Of a stretch of 6,023 nucleotides of DNA, positions 1 to 6,023 are shown piece after piece. The position numbers were made by a program, and so were the translations under genes. Numbering within the stretch: position 1 is the stretch's first letter; every line of letters begins with the position of its first letter. The notes under the pieces were generated by a model. The model saw nothing but the letters and a program-made list of their open reading frames with translations, had not been told where the DNA came from and made no database searches. The stretch is taken from IMG/VR virus record IMGVR_UViG_3300020029_000055, positions 1 through 6,023 of that record. One strand, given 5' to 3'. This DNA comes from a virus.

Positions 1-121
1 AACTGCTCTTGATGCCATGGGTGTCAACTCAACTATTGAACGCAACAAGGCCGCCGCTAACCGTGATGATGCCGAGGCTGCAAATATTCGTAGTAATACT
101 TTTGAACCTGAGTTTAATAAG
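1..121. repeat. Terminal direct repeat, left copy; exact duplicate of 5903..6023 (circular-genome assembly overlap)
   Basis: A base-by-base comparison of 1..121 (aactgctcttgatgccatgg...gagtttaataag) with 5903..6023 shows identity over all 121 nt. The repeat lies at the very ends of the window. Confidence 0.98.
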
Positions 122-931
122 GCTCGTCTTGAAGCCTCTAAAGCTGTTGATGAGGCGTTGGCTAATAAGGAAATCGAGGCCGCCGCTGCACTTAAGTCTG
201 AGCGTCTTTTGAATGACCTTAATAATACCCTGCTTTCTCTTACGCTCGATGCTCGCGTCGAGGAAGTTAAGTCACTCGCTGATACAGCCAAGGAAGAATT
301 GAGTCAGCTTCGTATCCAGGGTTCGTACCTTGATCGCATGCTTAAGGCTCGAATCCTTGTTCTTGAAACCCAGGGTGCTCTTAATGAGGCTCTTTCTGGT
401 CTTACTGCTGCTAATGAGGAGGGACAACGCATCAACAATCTTGATCTTTCTAATGAGTTTGCTCGTCAATGGGATAATCGCTTCGATGTTGAGATACCAA
501 ATCCTTCCTACAGCGCCAATATTCGCTCAAAAAATCCTATTCAGCGTGGCAACCCCGGTCCTAAATCTTTTAAGATTTCCATGTCCCTCAAGGACTTTTA
601 TGACAAGACCGTGATCAATCAATCTAAAGCTTCAGAATTTCTTCCCGAAGAGGCTCGTATCGCTCTTCGTAATGCGAAACTTGATCCGTATATTGAAATC
701 TCGAAAGCCCTCGTTGGCGTTGCTGGTAGTATCGCTGGCGCTGGCATTATTCGCGGAGGGATGTCACGTGCTGCCGGCACTATCTCCGCTGGCGGTTCTT
801 CTGCCAATTCTACGGCCTCCTCTATGACTACCCGTTATGATCCCAAAGGTAATGTTGTTGGTTATGCTAAAACTGAAATGAATCGTAGTGGTTATTCAAG
901 TACGTACAATAATTCTCGTCGTTCGCGTTAA
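1..931 (+). CDS. VP2: Minor capsid / DNA pilot protein VP2, C-terminal part (continuation of 5460..6023 across the circular junction)
   Basis: The frame is open from base 2 (ACT GCT CTT GAT GCC ATG...) to TAA 929-931. The same bases at 5903.. continue in frame from an ATG at 5460, so track ORF 17..931 is only the C-terminal two thirds of a 457-aa protein (443 + 931 = 1374 nt). It has a long Ala/Glu/Leu/Asn-rich helical, coiled-coil-like stretch (EAANIRSNTFEPEFNKARLEASKAVDEALANKEIEAAAALKSERLLNDL...EELSQLRIQGSYLDRMLKARILVLETQGALNEALSGL). A Gly/Ala/Ser-rich tail follows (VGVAGSIAGAGIIRGGMSRAAGTISAGGSS). This architecture is typical of microvirus pilot proteins. Confidence 0.85.
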   Translation, partial: TALDAMGVNSTIERNKAAANRDDAEAANIRSNTFEPEFNKARLEASKAVDEALANKEIEAAAALKSERLLNDLNNTLLSLTLDARVEEVKSLADTAKEELSQLRIQGSYLDRMLKARILVLETQGALNEALSGLTAANEEGQRINNLDLSNEFARQWDNRFDVEIPNPSYSANIRSKNPIQRGNPGPKSFKISMSLKDFYDKTVINQSKASEFLPEEARIALRNAKLDPYIEISKALVGVAGSIAGAGIIRGGMSRAAGTISAGGSSANSTASSMTTRYDPKGNVVGYAKTEMNRSGYSSTYNNSRRSR

Positions 932-992
932 TTTTTTTGGAGTTTAATTTTTTTTGCTATATTTGCATTGTCAAACCAATAACCTTTATATT

Positions 993-1307
993 ATGGAAAA
1001 GTGTAAATTTGAAGCACGTGCGTTGATTATCGACGTTTTCGACTACATGTTCGTTGAATGGCTTTGTCGTCGTCGCCTTTACTCGAAATTTGTAGCAAAC
1101 CTTTCGTCTATCAAGGACAATCCAATGGCTTCTCGCGCTGCCGTTCGTGAGATTATTGTTCATACCCTGGACGCACCCAACCTTGCCTTGTCTGACGCTG
1201 TCATCTCGGCTTTCGCCTTTGAGTCTACCTCCGAAGGCCTCATTTTCTGGCTTAACGTTTCGCGAGATTGGAAAAATTTCGTTGAATCGCTTATTCATCT
1301 TATTTAA
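993..1307 (+). CDS. Hypothetical protein (104 aa from ATG 993), function unknown
   Basis: Track ORF 954..1307 begins at TTG 954, and the first ATG is at 993 (MEKCKFEARALIID...). Codon use is T-ending like the core genes. The ORF fills the gap between the VP2 stop (931) and the next ORF (1321). I recognise no family; the C-terminal FAFESTSEGLIFWLNVSRDWKNF looks motif-like but I cannot assign it. Confidence 0.6.
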   Translation: MEKCKFEARALIIDVFDYMFVEWLCRRRLYSKFVANLSSIKDNPMASRAAVREIIVHTLDAPNLALSDAVISAFAFESTSEGLIFWLNVSRDWKNFVESLIHLI

Positions 1308-1320
1308 TTCGTTTTTTGCT

Positions 1321-1644
1321 ATGACACAGATTCACCTTGTTATTCGTCGCATCAATCCCGCCCTTAAGATCGACTTTGTCCAGATTGGACGTCTAGAAGG
1401 CGGACAGTTCACTTCATTGCCTGTCGATGTTCTCGAAGGTACTCCCGTTCGTTCTTTTCTGAAGAGTTCGAATATCTCTGAGTCGCCGTACCTCGACCAT
1501 GAGAGTATCCCCCATCTTGTTTCAGCTCTTTGTCCCTTCCCTGGCTTTAGTATTGATTATTTTGACAATACTCTGATTCTCGTATTTGACCTTAATATTG
1601 ATTCCCATGAAGTCGCGTCGAAAGAAGAAGGGGAAGGGAACTAA
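1321..1644 (+). CDS. Hypothetical protein (107 aa from ATG 1321), function unknown
   Basis: Track ORF 1147..1644 overlaps the previous ORF. The in-frame ATG at 1321 (MTQIHLVIRRINPALKIDF...) lies 13 nt after the preceding stop, matching the compact packing. The ORF ends at TAA 1642-1644, 46 nt upstream of the terminator hairpin, and has an acidic C-terminus (SHEVASKEEGEGN). Confidence 0.6.
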   Translation: MTQIHLVIRRINPALKIDFVQIGRLEGGQFTSLPVDVLEGTPVRSFLKSSNISESPYLDHESIPHLVSALCPFPGFSIDYFDNTLILVFDLNIDSHEVASKEEGEGN

Positions 1645-1690
1645 GGTAGTTACCCGCCCGCTTGGTGGAAGAGTTCTTTAACTCATTAAT

Positions 1691-1725
1691 CCTGCGGGAG
1701 AAAAATCTCTCGCAGGTTTTTTTTT
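1691..1725 (+). terminator. Rho-independent (intrinsic) terminator hairpin plus T-tract
   Basis: CCTGCGGGAGA (1691-1701), loop AAAA, TCTCTCGCAGG (1706-1716) form an 11-bp stem with one G.U pair. Nine consecutive T (1717-1725) follow directly. The element lies in a non-coding gap after the 1321..1644 ORF. A smaller hairpin, GAGTT-CTTT-AACTC, sits just upstream at 1671-1684. Confidence 0.75.
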
Positions 1726-1750
1726 AAACGTAGAGCGATGTTTTTGAATT

Positions 1751-1951
1751 ATGGATAATTTCGATTTTAGACCTAGATTTTCCCCTATTGTTAATAGCGT
1801 CCCTCATCGTTATTCTATTGGCGCATATCGTGGTAGAAAACGAGTTATTATCGCTTGGTTTACCGACGAAAGTCCTGCAAATGATTACCTTGCTCGTTGT
1901 CGTCGTACTAACCCTTATATTAAGTTTGATTGCCTTAAGAGTCTTTTTTGA
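1751..1951 (+). CDS. Small basic protein (66 aa); candidate DNA-binding/packaging protein (function inferred only)
   Basis: The ORF starts at ATG 1751, 26 nt after the terminator T-tract. Its stop, TGA 1949-1951, shares base 1951 with the Rep ATG (TGATG overlap), implying translational coupling. I count 12 Arg/Lys against 6 Asp/Glu (RGRKR, RCRR clusters). Confidence 0.55.
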   Translation: MDNFDFRPRFSPIVNSVPHRYSIGAYRGRKRVIIAWFTDESPANDYLARCRRTNPYIKFDCLKSLF

Positions 1952-3021
1952 TGGCTTGCTCTTCTCCTATATGGATACGTAATCGGCGCTATTTCGACAA
2001 GAAGAATCCTTGCCGTAATGGTTCTGATGTCGCCAAATCCGCCCTGGCTCTTCGTCCTTGGGATGTTGCCCGTCAGTGGCTAATGGTCCCGTGCGGAAAG
2101 TGCGAAGATTGCCTGCGTCGTCAGCGTAATGATTGGTTCGTGCGTTTAGAACGCGAGCTTGCTTGTTGTAAGGCTGATGGCCATCAGGCTATTTTTGTTA
2201 CAATAACAATTGCTCCAGAGTATTACAATGAAGCCTTGCTTGATCCCTCTCGATTCATCCGTCGATTCAATGAGCGTTTGCGCCACAAGCTTGGTCATTC
2301 ATTCAAGCATGCTTTTTTTCAAGAGTTCGGCACGCATCCTGAGATGGGAAACGAACCTCGATTACACTTCCATGGCTTTCTTTTCGGCACAAATGTTCTT
2401 TATAACACGATTCGTTCTGCTGTTCGAGACCTTGGCTTTGTGTGGCTTGCAAAAGCAACTCACAAGCGTGCCCGATATTGTGTCAAATATGTTACTAAAC
2501 AAATTCAGTTTAACCCCGAGGAAATCTCGGATAAATTCGTTACCTTAAATGGAAAAGTTACACCTTTGGCTATCCTCCTCCAACATCGCCGTTATACGCG
2601 AAAATTCATATCTGCTGGCGTTGGTGATTTTCTTGGTTATAAGCCTCGCCCTTCTGCCCGTACTTCGTCGTGGTCTTATTATGATATTGAGGCTTCTATC
2701 AATTACAACTACCCGATTCCTCGATACTACCATCGCTATCTTAAACCGGAAGACGAAGTTATGCGTTCGATTGCCGCTGCTGATAGTTATGCGCGTTTTA
2801 GCAGGTCTTCTCTGGTTAAGCATATTGTGTCTTTGTGTGTTAAACGGTTCGGCCTCAATTCCTCCGTATCCTGTAGAGAAACATATACGTGGGAGCAAAA
2901 GCAAATGATGCGTTTTGCTGCTTCTTCTCTCAAGATGCCTGATTTTGACCCTCCTACCTGGTTAGATTTGGATATTCTTCAGTTTTGGAGAGACCATTAT
3001 AAACTTCAACTAAACATTTAA
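1951..3021 (+). CDS. VP4: Replication initiation protein VP4 (HUH-superfamily rolling-circle endonuclease, phiX174 gene A-like)
   Basis: The track ORF starts at TTG 1948; ATG 1951 is the likely start. Cys cluster PCGKCEDC. Motif I FVTITI (nt 2194-2211). Motif II HFH in RLHFHGFLF (nt 2365-2373). Motif III with two tyrosines, YCVKYVTK (nt 2476-2499), compares with YVAKYVNK around the catalytic tyrosines of phiX174 protein A. The order and spacing of these motifs are those of microvirus Rep proteins. Confidence 0.93.
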   Translation: MACSSPIWIRNRRYFDKKNPCRNGSDVAKSALALRPWDVARQWLMVPCGKCEDCLRRQRNDWFVRLERELACCKADGHQAIFVTITIAPEYYNEALLDPSRFIRRFNERLRHKLGHSFKHAFFQEFGTHPEMGNEPRLHFHGFLFGTNVLYNTIRSAVRDLGFVWLAKATHKRARYCVKYVTKQIQFNPEEISDKFVTLNGKVTPLAILLQHRRYTRKFISAGVGDFLGYKPRPSARTSSWSYYDIEASINYNYPIPRYYHRYLKPEDEVMRSIAAADSYARFSRSSLVKHIVSLCVKRFGLNSSVSCRETYTWEQKQMMRFAASSLKMPDFDPPTWLDLDILQFWRDHYKLQLNI

Positions 3022-3024
3022 TTT

Positions 3025-4824
3025 ATGGGAAAACAACCTTTTATTTCACATGTCGTAAATGGTTACTCTCGTTATGATGTTCCTGAGAGTAAGGCCTTTA
3101 CGTGCACGCCGGGTATTCTCTATCCGGTGCGAATTGATTTTATTAACGCACGCGACCGCGTGTCTATCGAACAGGGTATTGACGTTCGCAGTAATCCTTT
3201 GGCTGTTCCGACATTTAACCCCTACACCATTCGACTTCATCGTTTCTGGGTACCTCTTCAGCTTTATCACCCTGAATTGAGGACAAATAGCAGCAAGTTT
3301 GACATGAACGATTTGAGCTTGAATTGGATTACCGCTCTTGTTGGCACCGCTGGGACTACCACTCCCAATTCCGCCCTTGGCGCTTCGCGAGCCTTTCCCA
3401 ATTCGCTTATGTCCTGGCTCCGCGTCTCCAATAAGACGTCGCTTCAGCTTTCTAATCAACCTCCTTATACCGCCAGTCTTCCTTCTAGTGCCGCGGTCAA
3501 TCAGTGGGCGAACGCTGATACGTATTTAGCCTATTGGGACATCGTCCGTAACTACTATAGCTACTCGCAGTGGTCTTTATTTTCGATCGCATGGCCTACT
3601 TCTTGGTCGATTATAGACAACTCCTATTCTTTCGCTGAATCAGCTTCGTTTTTTAAGCAAGAGTTCGCCAACCTAGAGTTTCTCGACGCTTATTTTGAGA
3701 GTCAGTTTTATCCATCGGCTGTCTCGAGTACGAACAACACTTTTAATAGAGGCAACTTGTTTTTCCAGATAATCTCTGCCCAGCTTCCTTCGGGTGGCGA
3801 ACAAAACGGCTACCCTGTTTCTGAGACGTTGCCTAGTGGTGCTAACATCGCTATCGGCAGTGGGCCTGACGGTCAGTTCTCCACTGCTGCAGGCGAGTCC
3901 TCTGTCTCTGGTATTGCGGCTTTTTTGTTTGCGCATCCTATGGCCGTTGTACCATCGAACCCCGATCGTTTCAGCCGTCTTATTCCCGTAGGTTCTTCGT
4001 CTGCTGTTTCCATGACCGGGGTAAACACTATTCCGCAGTTGGCTATTGCTTCTCGCCTTCAGGAATACAAGGATCTTCTCGGCGCCGGAGGTAATCGTTA
4101 TAGCGATTGGCTCGAGACATTCTTTGCTTCTAAGATTGAGCACGTAGACCGCCCTAAACTTCTTTTTAGTGCCTCTCAGACTGTTAATGTCCAGATTGTT
4201 TTGAACCAGGCTGGACAGAACAATTTCTCTAGCTCGGGCGTAAATGGTCCCTTGGGACAACAAGGTGGCGCTATTGCTTTCAATGATAGATTAGGCCGTC
4301 GACAGTCTTACTATTTCCGCGAACCCGGCTATATGATTGACATGCTGAGCATTCGCCCTGTTTATTTCTGGAGTGGCGTCACTCCCGATTATTTAAACTA
4401 TCAAGGGTCGGATTATTTCAATCCTATATATAATGATATTGGATATCAAGATGTTCCCGCCGCGCGGCTTTTTAGTAATGCTGCGGGCTCAAACCTTGGC
4501 CTTGCCGTTGCTTACGAGCCTTGTTTTAACGAGTTTCGTTCGTCTTATGATGAGGTATTAGGCTCTCTATCTTCGTATCCTGCCCCTACGTTAGGTGTCC
4601 CCAAAACTCTTTATTCGTATTGGGTACAGCAACGTTCGCTTGGCTTTTCGTATGTAGGCTCCGCTAGCGCCAATTATTATCCTGCGCTTTTTGTGGATAT
4701 GGCTCAGGTTAATTCACCTTTTGCCTCTAACGTAGAGGATAATTTCTTTATAAATATGTCTTACTCGGTTCAGAAGAAGAACTTGATTAATAAGACGTTT
4801 GCAACCCGTTTGTCTAATCGTTAA
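3025..4824 (+). CDS. VP1: Major capsid protein VP1 (phage F-protein family)
   Basis: This 599-aa ORF starts 3 nt after the Rep stop. The N-terminal region has the microvirus capsid pattern (TPGILYPV...RSNPLAVPTFNPYTIRLHRFWVPLQLY). Further conserved-looking blocks are AYWDIVRNYY and IPQLAIASRLQEYKDLLGAGGNRYSDWLETFF...DRPKLL. Its size and its position next to Rep fit VP1. Confidence 0.93.
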   Translation: MGKQPFISHVVNGYSRYDVPESKAFTCTPGILYPVRIDFINARDRVSIEQGIDVRSNPLAVPTFNPYTIRLHRFWVPLQLYHPELRTNSSKFDMNDLSLNWITALVGTAGTTTPNSALGASRAFPNSLMSWLRVSNKTSLQLSNQPPYTASLPSSAAVNQWANADTYLAYWDIVRNYYSYSQWSLFSIAWPTSWSIIDNSYSFAESASFFKQEFANLEFLDAYFESQFYPSAVSSTNNTFNRGNLFFQIISAQLPSGGEQNGYPVSETLPSGANIAIGSGPDGQFSTAAGESSVSGIAAFLFAHPMAVVPSNPDRFSRLIPVGSSSAVSMTGVNTIPQLAIASRLQEYKDLLGAGGNRYSDWLETFFASKIEHVDRPKLLFSASQTVNVQIVLNQAGQNNFSSSGVNGPLGQQGGAIAFNDRLGRRQSYYFREPGYMIDMLSIRPVYFWSGVTPDYLNYQGSDYFNPIYNDIGYQDVPAARLFSNAAGSNLGLAVAYEPCFNEFRSSYDEVLGSLSSYPAPTLGVPKTLYSYWVQQRSLGFSYVGSASANYYPALFVDMAQVNSPFASNVEDNFFINMSYSVQKKNLINKTFATRLSNR

Positions 4825-4836
4825 TTTACTGAATTT

Positions 4837-5133
4837 ATGGCACTTGATTGGTTACTTGAAGACATTCCCGCTTACGTTTCTCGCGGTCAGCGAATCATGT
4901 CTGTCCTTGATGGCACTGGATCTGTCGACGTTTTGCCTGGTCGCCCAGATGTGGTGGCTCAGCCCTCTGACTTCGATAAGGGCGAAAAGTTCAACCCCGA
5001 GATCGACTTTGACCCTAATTCCTTCTCCCGTATGGATAAGTTCGATGGTCTCGAGGTTGGTCAGGAACTTATTGATTCGGAGTTAGATAGATCGAATCCC
5101 GCTTCTAAACCCGCTAAGTCTGAAGAAAAATAG
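4837..5133 (+). CDS. Small acidic protein (98 aa), function unknown; possibly scaffolding-like (weak inference)
   Basis: ATG 4837 lies 12 nt after the VP1 stop, and the ORF ends at TAG 5131-5133. By my count there are 21 Asp/Glu against 11 Arg/Lys, with repeated DFD/KFD/KFN elements (SDFDKGEKFNPEIDFDPNSFSRMDKFDGLE). Codon use is the same T-ending pattern as the core genes. Confidence 0.6.
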   Translation: MALDWLLEDIPAYVSRGQRIMSVLDGTGSVDVLPGRPDVVAQPSDFDKGEKFNPEIDFDPNSFSRMDKFDGLEVGQELIDSELDRSNPASKPAKSEEK

Positions 5134-5163
5134 TATATCCTTTACTTGAAGATATATGTTACG

Positions 5164-5241
5164 TGCGCGGACCCCTTCTGCGATAGTCCGTGAATCGCTG
5201 AAGGTTATTGGTAACGACTGCAGGAGAGGCCGCGCATTTTT
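5164..5241 (+). other. Nested stem-loop element in the largest intergenic gap (candidate terminator and/or ssDNA complementary-strand origin)
   Basis: The outer 7-bp GC-rich stem TGCGCGG (5164-5170) / CCGCGCA (5230-5236) is followed by TTTTT (5237-5241). Inside it is a hairpin CCTTCTGCGAT (5174-5184) / ATCGCTGAAGG (5194-5204), which pairs at 10 of 11 positions around a 9-nt loop. No ORF covers this region on the + strand. Confidence 0.5.
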
Positions 5242-5266
5242 CTATCGTTCTTTAATGTTTTAAGCT

Positions 5267-5458
5267 ATGCCTAATACTAAAACTCCCTTCTATAAGTCGA
5301 AGGCTTTTTGGACGCTTATTTCGTCTATTGTAGCTGCTCTTTCGGCTTTTTTTCTTGCTTCGTGTTCTGCACAAGCAAAGGTCGCTCGAACGGGTATTCA
5401 CATTGATACTGTTCGCGTAGATTACATTATTCGCTCGAACAATTTTTCGCTTCCGTAA
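5267..5458 (+). CDS. Small membrane protein with lipoprotein-type signal (63 aa); candidate lysis or exclusion lipoprotein
   Basis: Sequence: MPNTKTPFYKSK (basic n-region), AFWTLISSIVAALSAFFLAS (about 20 hydrophobic residues), C33. L-A-S-C fits the lipobox consensus [LVI][ASTVI][GAS]C. The predicted mature peptide is about 31 aa (CSAQAKVARTGIHIDTVRVDYIIRSNNFSLP). The stop TAA 5456-5458 lies 1 nt before the VP2 ATG. Confidence 0.6.
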   Translation: MPNTKTPFYKSKAFWTLISSIVAALSAFFLASCSAQAKVARTGIHIDTVRVDYIIRSNNFSLP

Positions 5459-5459
5459 T

Positions 5460-6023
5460 ATGAGACTTATTGATTTCAAGTCCTACGTTGAGCCTGTTTC
5501 CACAGGTGCTATGCTCGGTGCTGCAGGTCTTTCCGCTGGCGGCCAGGTCGCCTCTGGCCTTTTTAAGCCATCCCTTAAGAGGCAATGGAAATATCAACAA
5601 AAGCAAATGAAGCTCCAGCAGCAGTATGCTCTAGAGCAAATGCAGAAGCAAGGTGAGATTAACTATGCTAACTGGCAAAAGCAGTTTGACTATGAGAATG
5701 CCTATAACGATCCTTCGAAAGTTTTCGACCGTTATCTTAAAGCCGGTGTTACGCCAGCCGCCGTTCTTGGCTCTTCGGGTGTTGGCGTCAACGCTACTAT
5801 GTCTGGTGGCTCTGCTGGCTCTGTAGGCGCTTCTGGCCCTTCTGGTGGATCTTTTGATTTCTCGAGCCCTCTGCCTCCCGGTGTTGGTTCTTCCGCTGCT
5901 GAAACTGCTCTTGATGCCATGGGTGTCAACTCAACTATTGAACGCAACAAGGCCGCCGCTAACCGTGATGATGCCGAGGCTGCAAATATTCGTAGTAATA
6001 CTTTTGAACCTGAGTTTAATAAG
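5460..6023 (+). CDS. VP2: Minor capsid / DNA pilot protein VP2, N-terminal part (runs off the window end; continues at base 1 via the circular junction)
   Basis: ATG 5460 opens a frame with no stop through 6023; it is absent from the ORF track, presumably because no stop occurs in the window. My translation: MRLIDFKSYVEPVSTGAMLGAAGLSAGGQVASGLFKPSLKRQWKYQQKQMKLQQQYALEQMQKQGEINYANWQKQFDYENAYNDPSKVFDRYLKAGVTPAAVLG... The ENAYNDPS....R.LKAG..PA block resembles the conserved N-terminal motif of non-phiX microvirus VP2 proteins. A Gly/Ser-rich linker follows (GSSGVGVNATMSGGSAGSVGASGPSGGS). The frame joins 17..931 exactly (5919 = 17 + 5902). Confidence 0.85.
   Translation, partial: MRLIDFKSYVEPVSTGAMLGAAGLSAGGQVASGLFKPSLKRQWKYQQKQMKLQQQYALEQMQKQGEINYANWQKQFDYENAYNDPSKVFDRYLKAGVTPAAVLGSSGVGVNATMSGGSAGSVGASGPSGGSFDFSSPLPPGVGSSAAETALDAMGVNSTIERNKAAANRDDAEAANIRSNTFEPEFNK
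5903..6023. repeat. Terminal direct repeat, right copy; exact duplicate of 1..121
   Basis: See the left copy: 121/121 identity, located at the window ends. Confidence 0.98.

Follow-up and report, generated by a model that had tools for sequence, protein, structure and literature searches.

A conserved, modular lipoprotein gene beside the pilot-protein gene of a microvirus lineage, and its candidacy as a release factor

Bacteriophage phiX174 is the only microvirus with a known lysis mechanism (PMC3394797). Only some microviruses carry peptidase genes, whose presumed role is in lysis (PMC3394797, PMC9239249), and overprinted genes were excluded from one of these analyses (PMC9239249). The colicin lysis proteins are made as 47-amino-acid (aa) precursors with a 19-aa signal peptide, are lipidated and sorted to the outer membrane, activate phospholipase A and are lethal if overexpressed (PMC2896534). 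Here we analyse an open reading frame (ORF) of 63 codons at positions 5267-5458 (+ strand, ATG start; protein MPNTKTPFYKSKAFWTLISSIVAALSAFFLASCSAQAKVARTGIHIDTVRVDYIIRSNNFSLP) of IMG/VR virus record IMGVR_UViG_3300020029_000055, positions 1 to 6,023, a stretch of 6,023 nucleotides (nt) that we call the window. A preliminary description of this one sequence had taken its product for a candidate single-gene lysis or superinfection-exclusion factor carrying a lipobox. Small phage lipoproteins are known; a conserved and modular one in the Microviridae is undescribed in the literature that we searched, as the key microvirus papers examined mention no lipoprotein and our searches found no literature linking microviruses or single-gene lysis to a lipobox protein.

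Conservation and features of the 63-codon frame

The frame is very probably a real lipoprotein gene, because it is intact in every related locus compared, has a low ratio of non-synonymous to synonymous change (dN/dS) and varies mainly at third codon positions. The single sequence by itself is only suggestive, since a lipobox ORF of at least 50 aa occurs on the + strand in ~6% of Markov-simulated genomes of the same composition, and a chance ORF in an intergenic spacer therefore had to be considered. Relatives were gathered with a 22-nt piece of a conserved upstream element, which gave 113 IMG/VR microvirus contigs; 109 loci, the window and five GenBank relatives included, had enough downstream sequence. 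The frame is intact at the same position in all 109, which encode 101 distinct proteins, each with a single Cys in the context L-[ASTEGV]-S-C. Disruption in close relatives, to which the preliminary description had looked as the sign of a spurious ORF, thus occurs nowhere among them. Codon statistics were taken from the 95 sequences of the window's type (type A): entropy is 1.09 at third positions vs 0.27 at first and 0.15 at second positions, the proportions of synonymous (pS) and non-synonymous (pN) differences are 0.62 and 0.085, and dN/dS is 0.069 in frame vs ~2.6 in both other frames. In public protein collections, 356 clusters (90% identity) match the single sequence and 684 match a profile; one nr entry is titled "MAG TPA: lipoprotein [Microviridae sp.]" and the other matches are unnamed or hypothetical. 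These comparative data refute the chance-ORF explanation, whose probability we regard as negligible.

All of the features first read from the window (a basic N terminus, a hydrophobic span, an L-A-S-C lipobox and a mature peptide of ~31 aa) are present in the protein, with lysines K5, K10 and K12 in the n-region, an 18-residue hydrophobic stretch from W15 to S32, and Cys33. The succession of a basic n-region and an h-region is kept family-wide (53 representatives); across these representatives Cys33 and Asp47 are invariant and K12, F14, W15, A24, F29 and G43 nearly so. In every family alignment the Cys is invariant and the lipobox residue at -1 is always S, G or A. The PROSITE rule PS51257, applied as [LVI][ASTVI][GAS]C with the Cys within residues 15-35, recognises the window protein, 89 of 89 unique type A proteins, 3 of 3 type C proteins and 40 of the 53 family representatives. 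The dN/dS is 0.049 in the signal-peptide half and 0.09 in the mature half; because the former value is reached while synonymous sites are saturated (pS 0.61), the constraint on the signal peptide acts on amino acids and not on nucleotides. Stronger constraint on this half than on the mature half is unusual for a signal peptide.

The mature peptide, C33-P63, has a net charge of ~+2, a core of R41-x-G43-x-H45-x-D47-T48-V49, one Pro, at its C terminus, and no second Cys. Surface-exposed lipoproteins of Bacteroidetes bear an acidic motif after the Cys; here the Cys is followed by SAQAK or SAQAR and by no acidic residues, and the predicted lipoprotein therefore probably faces the periplasm, inside the envelope. 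An AlphaFold2 (AF2) model built on the 53-sequence alignment has a helix at residues 12-32 (predicted local distance difference test, pLDDT, >90) and a beta-hairpin with strands 36-42 and 50-56 (pLDDT ~75), with a mean of 79; a model from a shallow alignment, a single long helix, was discarded in its favour.

An exhaustive profile search of 1.84 billion representatives gave 65 family clusters at 50% identity. Among the genomes of 185,579 species in a genome collection, only two Alistipes assemblies match, and none contains a window-type sequence. Both matches are integrated microviruses of the order Rep-VP1-ORF~100-VP2, in which the left prophage end bears the lipoprotein gene, ahead of Rep and not before VP2; a homologue is carried by the cultured lysogen Alistipes montrealensis kh20. 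Because homologues occur in integrated Alistipes microviruses, the host of the window phage is probably Alistipes or another member of the Bacteroidales. The GenBank relatives come from faeces of pigs, civets, musk deer, rodents, lemurs and tortoises. Sampled relatives at 67, 66, 65, 63, 57.5 and 46% VP1 identity all have a 57-78-aa lipobox ORF directly before VP2. The earlier suggestion that such an ORF might occupy this position in related genomes is thus borne out down to 46% VP1 identity, but not in the Alistipes prophages. In relatives that lack the gene no replacement lysis enzyme was found, the sole match being a borderline HEPN hit, to a 115-aa hypothetical protein (STY4199-like HEPN, E 1.5e-5, 24.9 bits vs a cut-off of 25) at 4400-4747 of L188 (OM869708). 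A relative without the family at 33% VP1 identity, L190 (MZ089782, Microvirus mar36), has a different 67-aa lipobox ORF at 4125-4328 (MESFRFPLRRWCRNLLLVLFVVSVFASCATSAHISLSVSRADSLVFTYTARDTVYNLKTYEKTSRRP), and small lipoproteins may recur in microviruses.

The family is a mosaic. Type A (window-like) and type B proteins have a common signal peptide and mature peptides without profile similarity; homology between the two mature peptides is unsupported (hhalign probability ~1%). In type C proteins an A-type mature peptide follows a signal peptide like that of type B, the A-type core GVHIDTVRVDYIIRS of the mature part stands behind unrelated signal peptides in an Alistipes metagenome-assembled genome and in several clusters, and in PP511496 a B-type mature peptide follows another signal peptide. 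Between the window and the A. montrealensis prophage, VP4, VP1 and VP2 are 27, 25 and 23% identical and the lipoprotein module 74%; between the window and MG945151, VP1 and VP4 are 67-69% identical and the lipoprotein only 45%, located in the signal peptide. The gene is modular, and its history, judged from these identities, is decoupled from that of the rest of the genome.

Genomic context and additional reading frames

The window begins and ends with an exact 121-nt direct repeat (1-121 = 5903-6023) and is therefore a complete circular microvirus genome with a unit of 5902 nt; its features are given in Table 1. VP2, read across the circular junction, has a total length of 457 aa. Searches of the window ORFs against Pfam and PHROGs recognised no lysis enzyme or peptidase.

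Table 1. Positions of the lipoprotein gene, its parts and other features in the window
Feature	Position	Strand	Evidence
Small prolipoprotein gene, 63 codons + TAA	5267-5458	+	ORF list, intact in 109/109 related loci
Signal peptide, residues 1-32, n-region MPNTKTPFYKSKAF + h-region WTLISSIVAALSAFFLAS	5267-5362	+	Sequence, AF2, dN/dS
Lipobox L30-A31-S32-C33	5354-5365	+	PS51257 rule, invariant Cys
Predicted mature lipopeptide C33-P63, 31 aa	5363-5455	+	dN/dS 0.09, AF2 hairpin
Stop/start junction TAA-T-ATG with VP2	5456-5462	+	Sequence, all 109 loci
VP2 pilot protein gene	5460-6023, then 122-931	+	PHROG pilot-protein matches, wrap-around reading
Conserved non-coding element	5121-5254	+	Nucleotide conservation, compensatory hairpin changes
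98-aa ORF (ORF98)	4837-5133	+	ORF list
Capsid gene VP1	3025-4824	+	Pfam Phage_F
Rep/VP4	1948-3021	+	Pfam REP_ORF2-G2P, PHROG replication initiation
Likely overprinted 119-aa hydrophobic ORF, frame +1 in Rep/VP4, ATG start	2549-2908	+	Open in 112/114 relatives
Invariant 24-aa basic ORF, MK[AS]RRKKKGKGTKVVTRPLGGRVL	1607-1681	+	Conserved with Met in inspected relatives

The lipoprotein gene had been placed between the capsid and pilot genes, and so it is, but ORF98 and a 133-nt conserved non-coding element also separate it from VP1. Its TAA (5456-5458) is followed by one T and then by the VP2 ATG at 5460, as first described, and the stop codon (TAA or TAG), 1-2 nt and ATG recur in every locus examined; this conserved junction fits the late co-expression with VP2 that had been thought probable. 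A copy of TAnnTTTG, the Bacteroidetes-type -7 promoter motif, lies 55 nt upstream of VP1. It is the sole upstream copy on the gene strand, and no such motif lies between it and the lipoprotein gene; the count of the motif in the window is not above chance, and this promoter evidence is a weak lead. A terminator-like hairpin (GGCCAGGTCGCCTCTGGCC, then TTTTT; 5541-5569, +) lies ~27 codons into VP2 at a site with a sub-threshold Rfam isrD match (E 0.55), and could be an attenuator of pilot-gene expression.

The non-coding element is 85-87% identical in nucleotides even in genomes without any other megablast match. It consists of an invariant CTTTACTTGA(A/C)GATATATG(T/C)TAC, an outer GC stem (5163-5170 pairing with 5230-5237) and an inner hairpin (5174-5183 with 5195-5204), after which comes a T-run. 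The inner hairpin shows the compensatory changes TA-to-CG, CG-to-TA and GC-to-AT, the fold of the element RNA has z = -3.06, and searches against Rfam and for tRNAs gave no match. The element may serve as a replication origin, as a leaky terminator or as both; its ACTTGA..ATAT core presumably recalls the phiX174 origin, which is only a lead. The region upstream of the lipoprotein ATG (5121-5266, +) is often open in frame and is fused to the gene by gene callers, so that most database calls are 100 aa long. We rejected this longer version as the true protein, because an in-frame TAA interrupts it in the window (5261-5263), the upstream ORF of MG945151 (L002) lies in another frame, relatives differ in the start codons of the extension, and conservation of the upstream stretch is spread over all codon positions and accompanied by compensatory changes in the hairpin. 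About ten relatives (L009, L031, L050, L074, L079, L083, L086, L089, L108 and L112), and not the window, have a ~90-nt GC-rich insert (..TTTACACCATTGTGGCGAGGTGACGCATTTCGCGGTTCGGAGAACCGCCCCGAACGAAGTGAGGGTGCGGCACCGTAGC..) between the element and the ATG; this insert has no Rfam match and an ordinary folding energy (z = -0.67).

An all-frame scan for hydrophobic ORFs, followed by tests in relatives, singled out the 119-aa ORF that overlaps Rep. Its product has at least two hydrophobic segments of membrane-spanning length and a basic C terminus, and its ATG is conserved in 97 of 97 sequences. The synonymous diversity of Rep falls from ~0.75 to 0.2-0.4 exactly over codons 190-320; in the overprinted region, the pS of Rep drops from 0.70 to 0.275 and the dN/dS of frame +1 is 0.71, vs 2.3 in a control region. 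A synonymous-shuffle test is uninformative here, since the amino-acid composition alone keeps the frame open. We consider it likely that this ORF is an overprinted gene, which in public annotation is represented by only five unnamed database entries. A minus-strand ORF at 2545-2904 is likewise open.

About half of the family clusters (50% identity) are long forms of 172-223 aa, in which the lipoprotein module is followed by ~110 unconserved S/T/P-rich residues, a short hydrophobic stretch of 11-18 residues that contains Pro, and the basic tail RRGGRRGK.RPK..IPLGGSHL. The middle of the long forms overlaps a conserved ORF in another frame; in synonymous shuffles of this region, that other frame proved to be maintained (P at most 0.011) and the long lipoprotein frame was open by chance in 10-48% per genome. 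In the lineage of the window, the basic tail is a separate invariant ORF of 24 aa, which overlaps the 3' end of a 165-aa ORF in a different frame, and which we take to resemble the small basic DNA-binding protein J of phiX174. Integrated or episomal Alistipes microviruses (A. montrealensis kh20, L119 7977-8585; L121-L127; L140) have 192-202-aa lipoprotein ORFs upstream of Rep, whose middle overlaps a conserved 118-140-aa ORF in another frame. The same XRE-like helix-turn-helix gene lies just upstream of the long ORF in L119, L121, L123, L126 and L127; it is probably a host gene, because the circular contig L124 is without it.

Possible functions of the lipoprotein

The reading that we favour, tentatively and at somewhat less than even chances, is that of a late, envelope-acting release or lysis lipoprotein resembling the bacteriocin release proteins. 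This weight rests on the presence of the gene in the whole lineage, the lack of a recognised lysis enzyme, a module that stays conserved among phages with very different capsids, and the precedent of bacteriocin release. The gene would be expressed late, together with VP2; the prolipoprotein would be exported by Sec, a diacylglyceryl group would be transferred to Cys33, and signal peptidase II would then cleave, leaving a 31-aa lipidated beta-hairpin on the periplasmic side of a membrane. As bacteriocin release lipoproteins do, this hairpin may, late in infection, damage the envelope or make it permeable and thereby help to release the virions; the conserved signal peptide might itself be active as well, and the Rep-overprinted membrane protein might be a partner. 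Presence throughout the lineage, down to 46% VP1 identity, would be more in keeping with a central step of the cycle than with an accessory function, and the 74% identity of the module between phages whose VP1, VP2 and VP4 are 23-27% identical speaks for a conserved target in the host and against a receptor specific to the phage. It is possible, if doubtful, that this is the first lipoprotein-type lysis protein of a microvirus, with the lipidated hairpin, perhaps together with the cleaved signal peptide, killing and opening Bacteroidales cells alone or with the Rep-overprinted protein.

Several observations weigh against a release or lysis function. The lipoprotein has no sequence or structural likeness to colicin lysis proteins, spanins, entericidins or any PDB entry: it matches no Pfam family even at E up to 10 (PF02402 Lysis_col included), nothing in NCBIfam beyond signal-peptide noise, only one unnamed family in PHROGs (E 0.007) and no PDB sequence at E up to 10, and in Foldseek searches the model had no PDB match below E 2.9 and matched in BFVD just two Microviridae proteins, both uncharacterised members of this family. 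The link to bacteriocin release proteins or phage lysis peptides that had been suggested therefore found no backing in profile or fold searches. Most type B proteins in the IMG/VR set carry LESC, and the Glu at -2 fails PS51257 and is unusual for substrates of signal peptidase II. Mosaicism and mobility, seen here in two unrelated mature peptides and in exchanged signal peptides, are also typical of exclusion and host-interaction genes, and the homologues of the lipoprotein gene at the edge of integrated Alistipes prophages occupy a frequent site of lysogen-expressed exclusion genes. Sampled relatives at 42% and 38% VP1 identity are without the gene. Finally, the overprinted membrane protein could be the real lysis protein. 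Because this second ORF is conserved, the lipoprotein is not the sole candidate for lysis, and the idea of single-gene lysis advanced in the preliminary description is weakened.

The main rival, which we regard as unlikely, is a superinfection-exclusion or receptor-masking lipoprotein like Llp of T5 or Cor. The hairpin would bind the periplasmic side of an outer-membrane receptor or block the DNA-delivery tube of VP2, keeping other phages out and sparing the progeny from inactivation on cell debris. A small, predicted periplasm-facing lipoprotein beside pilot and capsid genes would be suited to this role, as would a mosaic cassette with alternative mature peptides that is the first gene at the left end of the Alistipes prophages; T5, a lytic phage, also keeps an exclusion lipoprotein gene. 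PADLOC gives weak matches to the candidate defence protein PDC-M02A (E 0.003-0.04, residues 25-61), a family that no paper describes in the literature searched on PDC-M02; however, they comprise the window protein and only 2 of 20 long forms. The gene is, moreover, present in every member of an apparently non-integrating lineage and under very strong purifying selection, its window type is absent from the 185,579 species' genomes, and the mature core is conserved though the capsids are only 25% identical, so that the receptors probably differ. No exclusion family of PHROGs or Pfam matches, and Llp and Cor are far larger than a peptide of 31 aa.

Two further explanations concern what becomes of the signal peptide and whether the protein kills by itself. 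It is quite improbable that the protein remains an uncleaved, signal-anchored peptide whose transmembrane helix inhibits a membrane step of wall-precursor synthesis, like phiX174 E and the MurJ blockers, with the Cys serving a purpose other than lipidation. The hydrophobic stretch has membrane-spanning length, Cys33 lies close to the far end of the range for lipoprotein signals, the n- and h-regions are nearly invariant family-wide, unlike those of ordinary signal peptides, and more constrained than the mature part at saturated synonymous sites, and the Glu at -2 in most type B proteins would be explained; but the Cys and a small residue at -1 are kept despite wholly unrelated signal peptides (L120, L186, P0231 and P0239), as would be expected of a lipobox, the mature peptide keeps its own conservation when the signal peptide differs, and GenBank type B relatives have canonical ATSC, AVSC or LTGC lipoboxes that pass PS51257. 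Improbable, too, is an accessory envelope protein that is not itself lethal and that completes, by spanin-like disruption or tethering, a lysis begun by the Rep-overprinted protein, the long forms of the Alistipes prophages being a one-piece, periplasm-spanning version. The presence of the overprinted protein, with its membrane-spanning-length segments, in the same genomes speaks for it, as do the many long forms with a hydrophobic stretch and basic tail, a layout that we take to resemble the u-spanin of T1. However, no endolysin is encoded, which leaves a spanin without an evident task, the mature peptide is neither proline-rich nor supplied with an extra Cys as in o-spanins, and no i-spanin-like partner gene is adjacent; the long frame is open by chance in a sizeable share of synonymous shuffles, its basic tail is a separate ORF in the lineage of the window, and its C-terminal hydrophobic stretch is short and contains Pro.

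Comparison with described systems

The analysis gives a shortlist for lysis in one abundant gut lineage, namely the universal 63-aa lipoprotein and the 119-aa Rep-overprinted membrane protein, both small enough for synthesis and expression. If the release or lysis reading is true, the lipoprotein would represent a new class of lysis system, single-gene or minimal, and would point to a target in the envelope of gut anaerobes that is so far unexploited; since essential targets in the envelope have more than once come to light through small lytic proteins, a lipidated peptide with activity against Bacteroidales would have practical value. Should it act in exclusion instead, it would be the first such factor described in the Microviridae.

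Like Llp of T5 and Cor of phi80, N15 and HK022, the window protein is a small phage lipoprotein predicted to face the periplasm, encoded near host-recognition and DNA-delivery genes in an exchangeable cassette. In contrast to them, it is universal in its lineage and conserved across very different capsids, its mature peptide is about half the size, and there is no sequence or family match. With the spanins (the o-spanin Rz1 of lambda and the u-spanin gp11 of T1) it shares the character of a phage lipoprotein that would act on the envelope at the end of infection, and the long forms, if made as one product with an N-terminal lipobox and a hydrophobic, basic C terminus, would recall a u-spanin. 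However, there is no endolysin/holin cassette; the neighbours are ORF98 and VP2 and not an i-spanin partner, the mature part is neither Pro-rich nor Cys-containing as an o-spanin would be, and the 63-aa form ends 30 residues after the Cys without the hydrophobic segment of a u-spanin. As with phiX174 E and other single-gene lysis proteins, the small membrane-targeted product, with a conserved hydrophobic N-terminal segment, comes from a tiny phage that has no muralytic enzyme, whereas here the ORF is free-standing, a lipobox is present, there is no homology, and the predicted N-in/C-out topology is the reverse of that of E. In genetic layout the ORF overprinted in Rep, which recalls E or a holin, is nearer to E than the lipoprotein is.

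By size and layout, the lipoprotein is closest to the colicin lysis proteins. Both are tiny prolipoproteins with a mature peptide of ~30 aa (~28 in colicin lysis proteins and 31 here), encoded on a small mobile replicon and made, in the window presumably with VP2, together with the product to be released. The likeness drawn in the preliminary description therefore holds for a small prolipoprotein and does not extend to family membership. They differ in the signal peptide (32 aa here vs ~19), in the host (probably Bacteroidales vs Enterobacteria), in the replicon (a single-stranded DNA phage vs a plasmid) and in the mature part, which is here a predicted beta-hairpin. The cleaved signal peptide of some colicin lysis proteins is stable and contributes to lethality, and the unusually constrained signal peptide of the microvirus lipoprotein would fit such a contribution.

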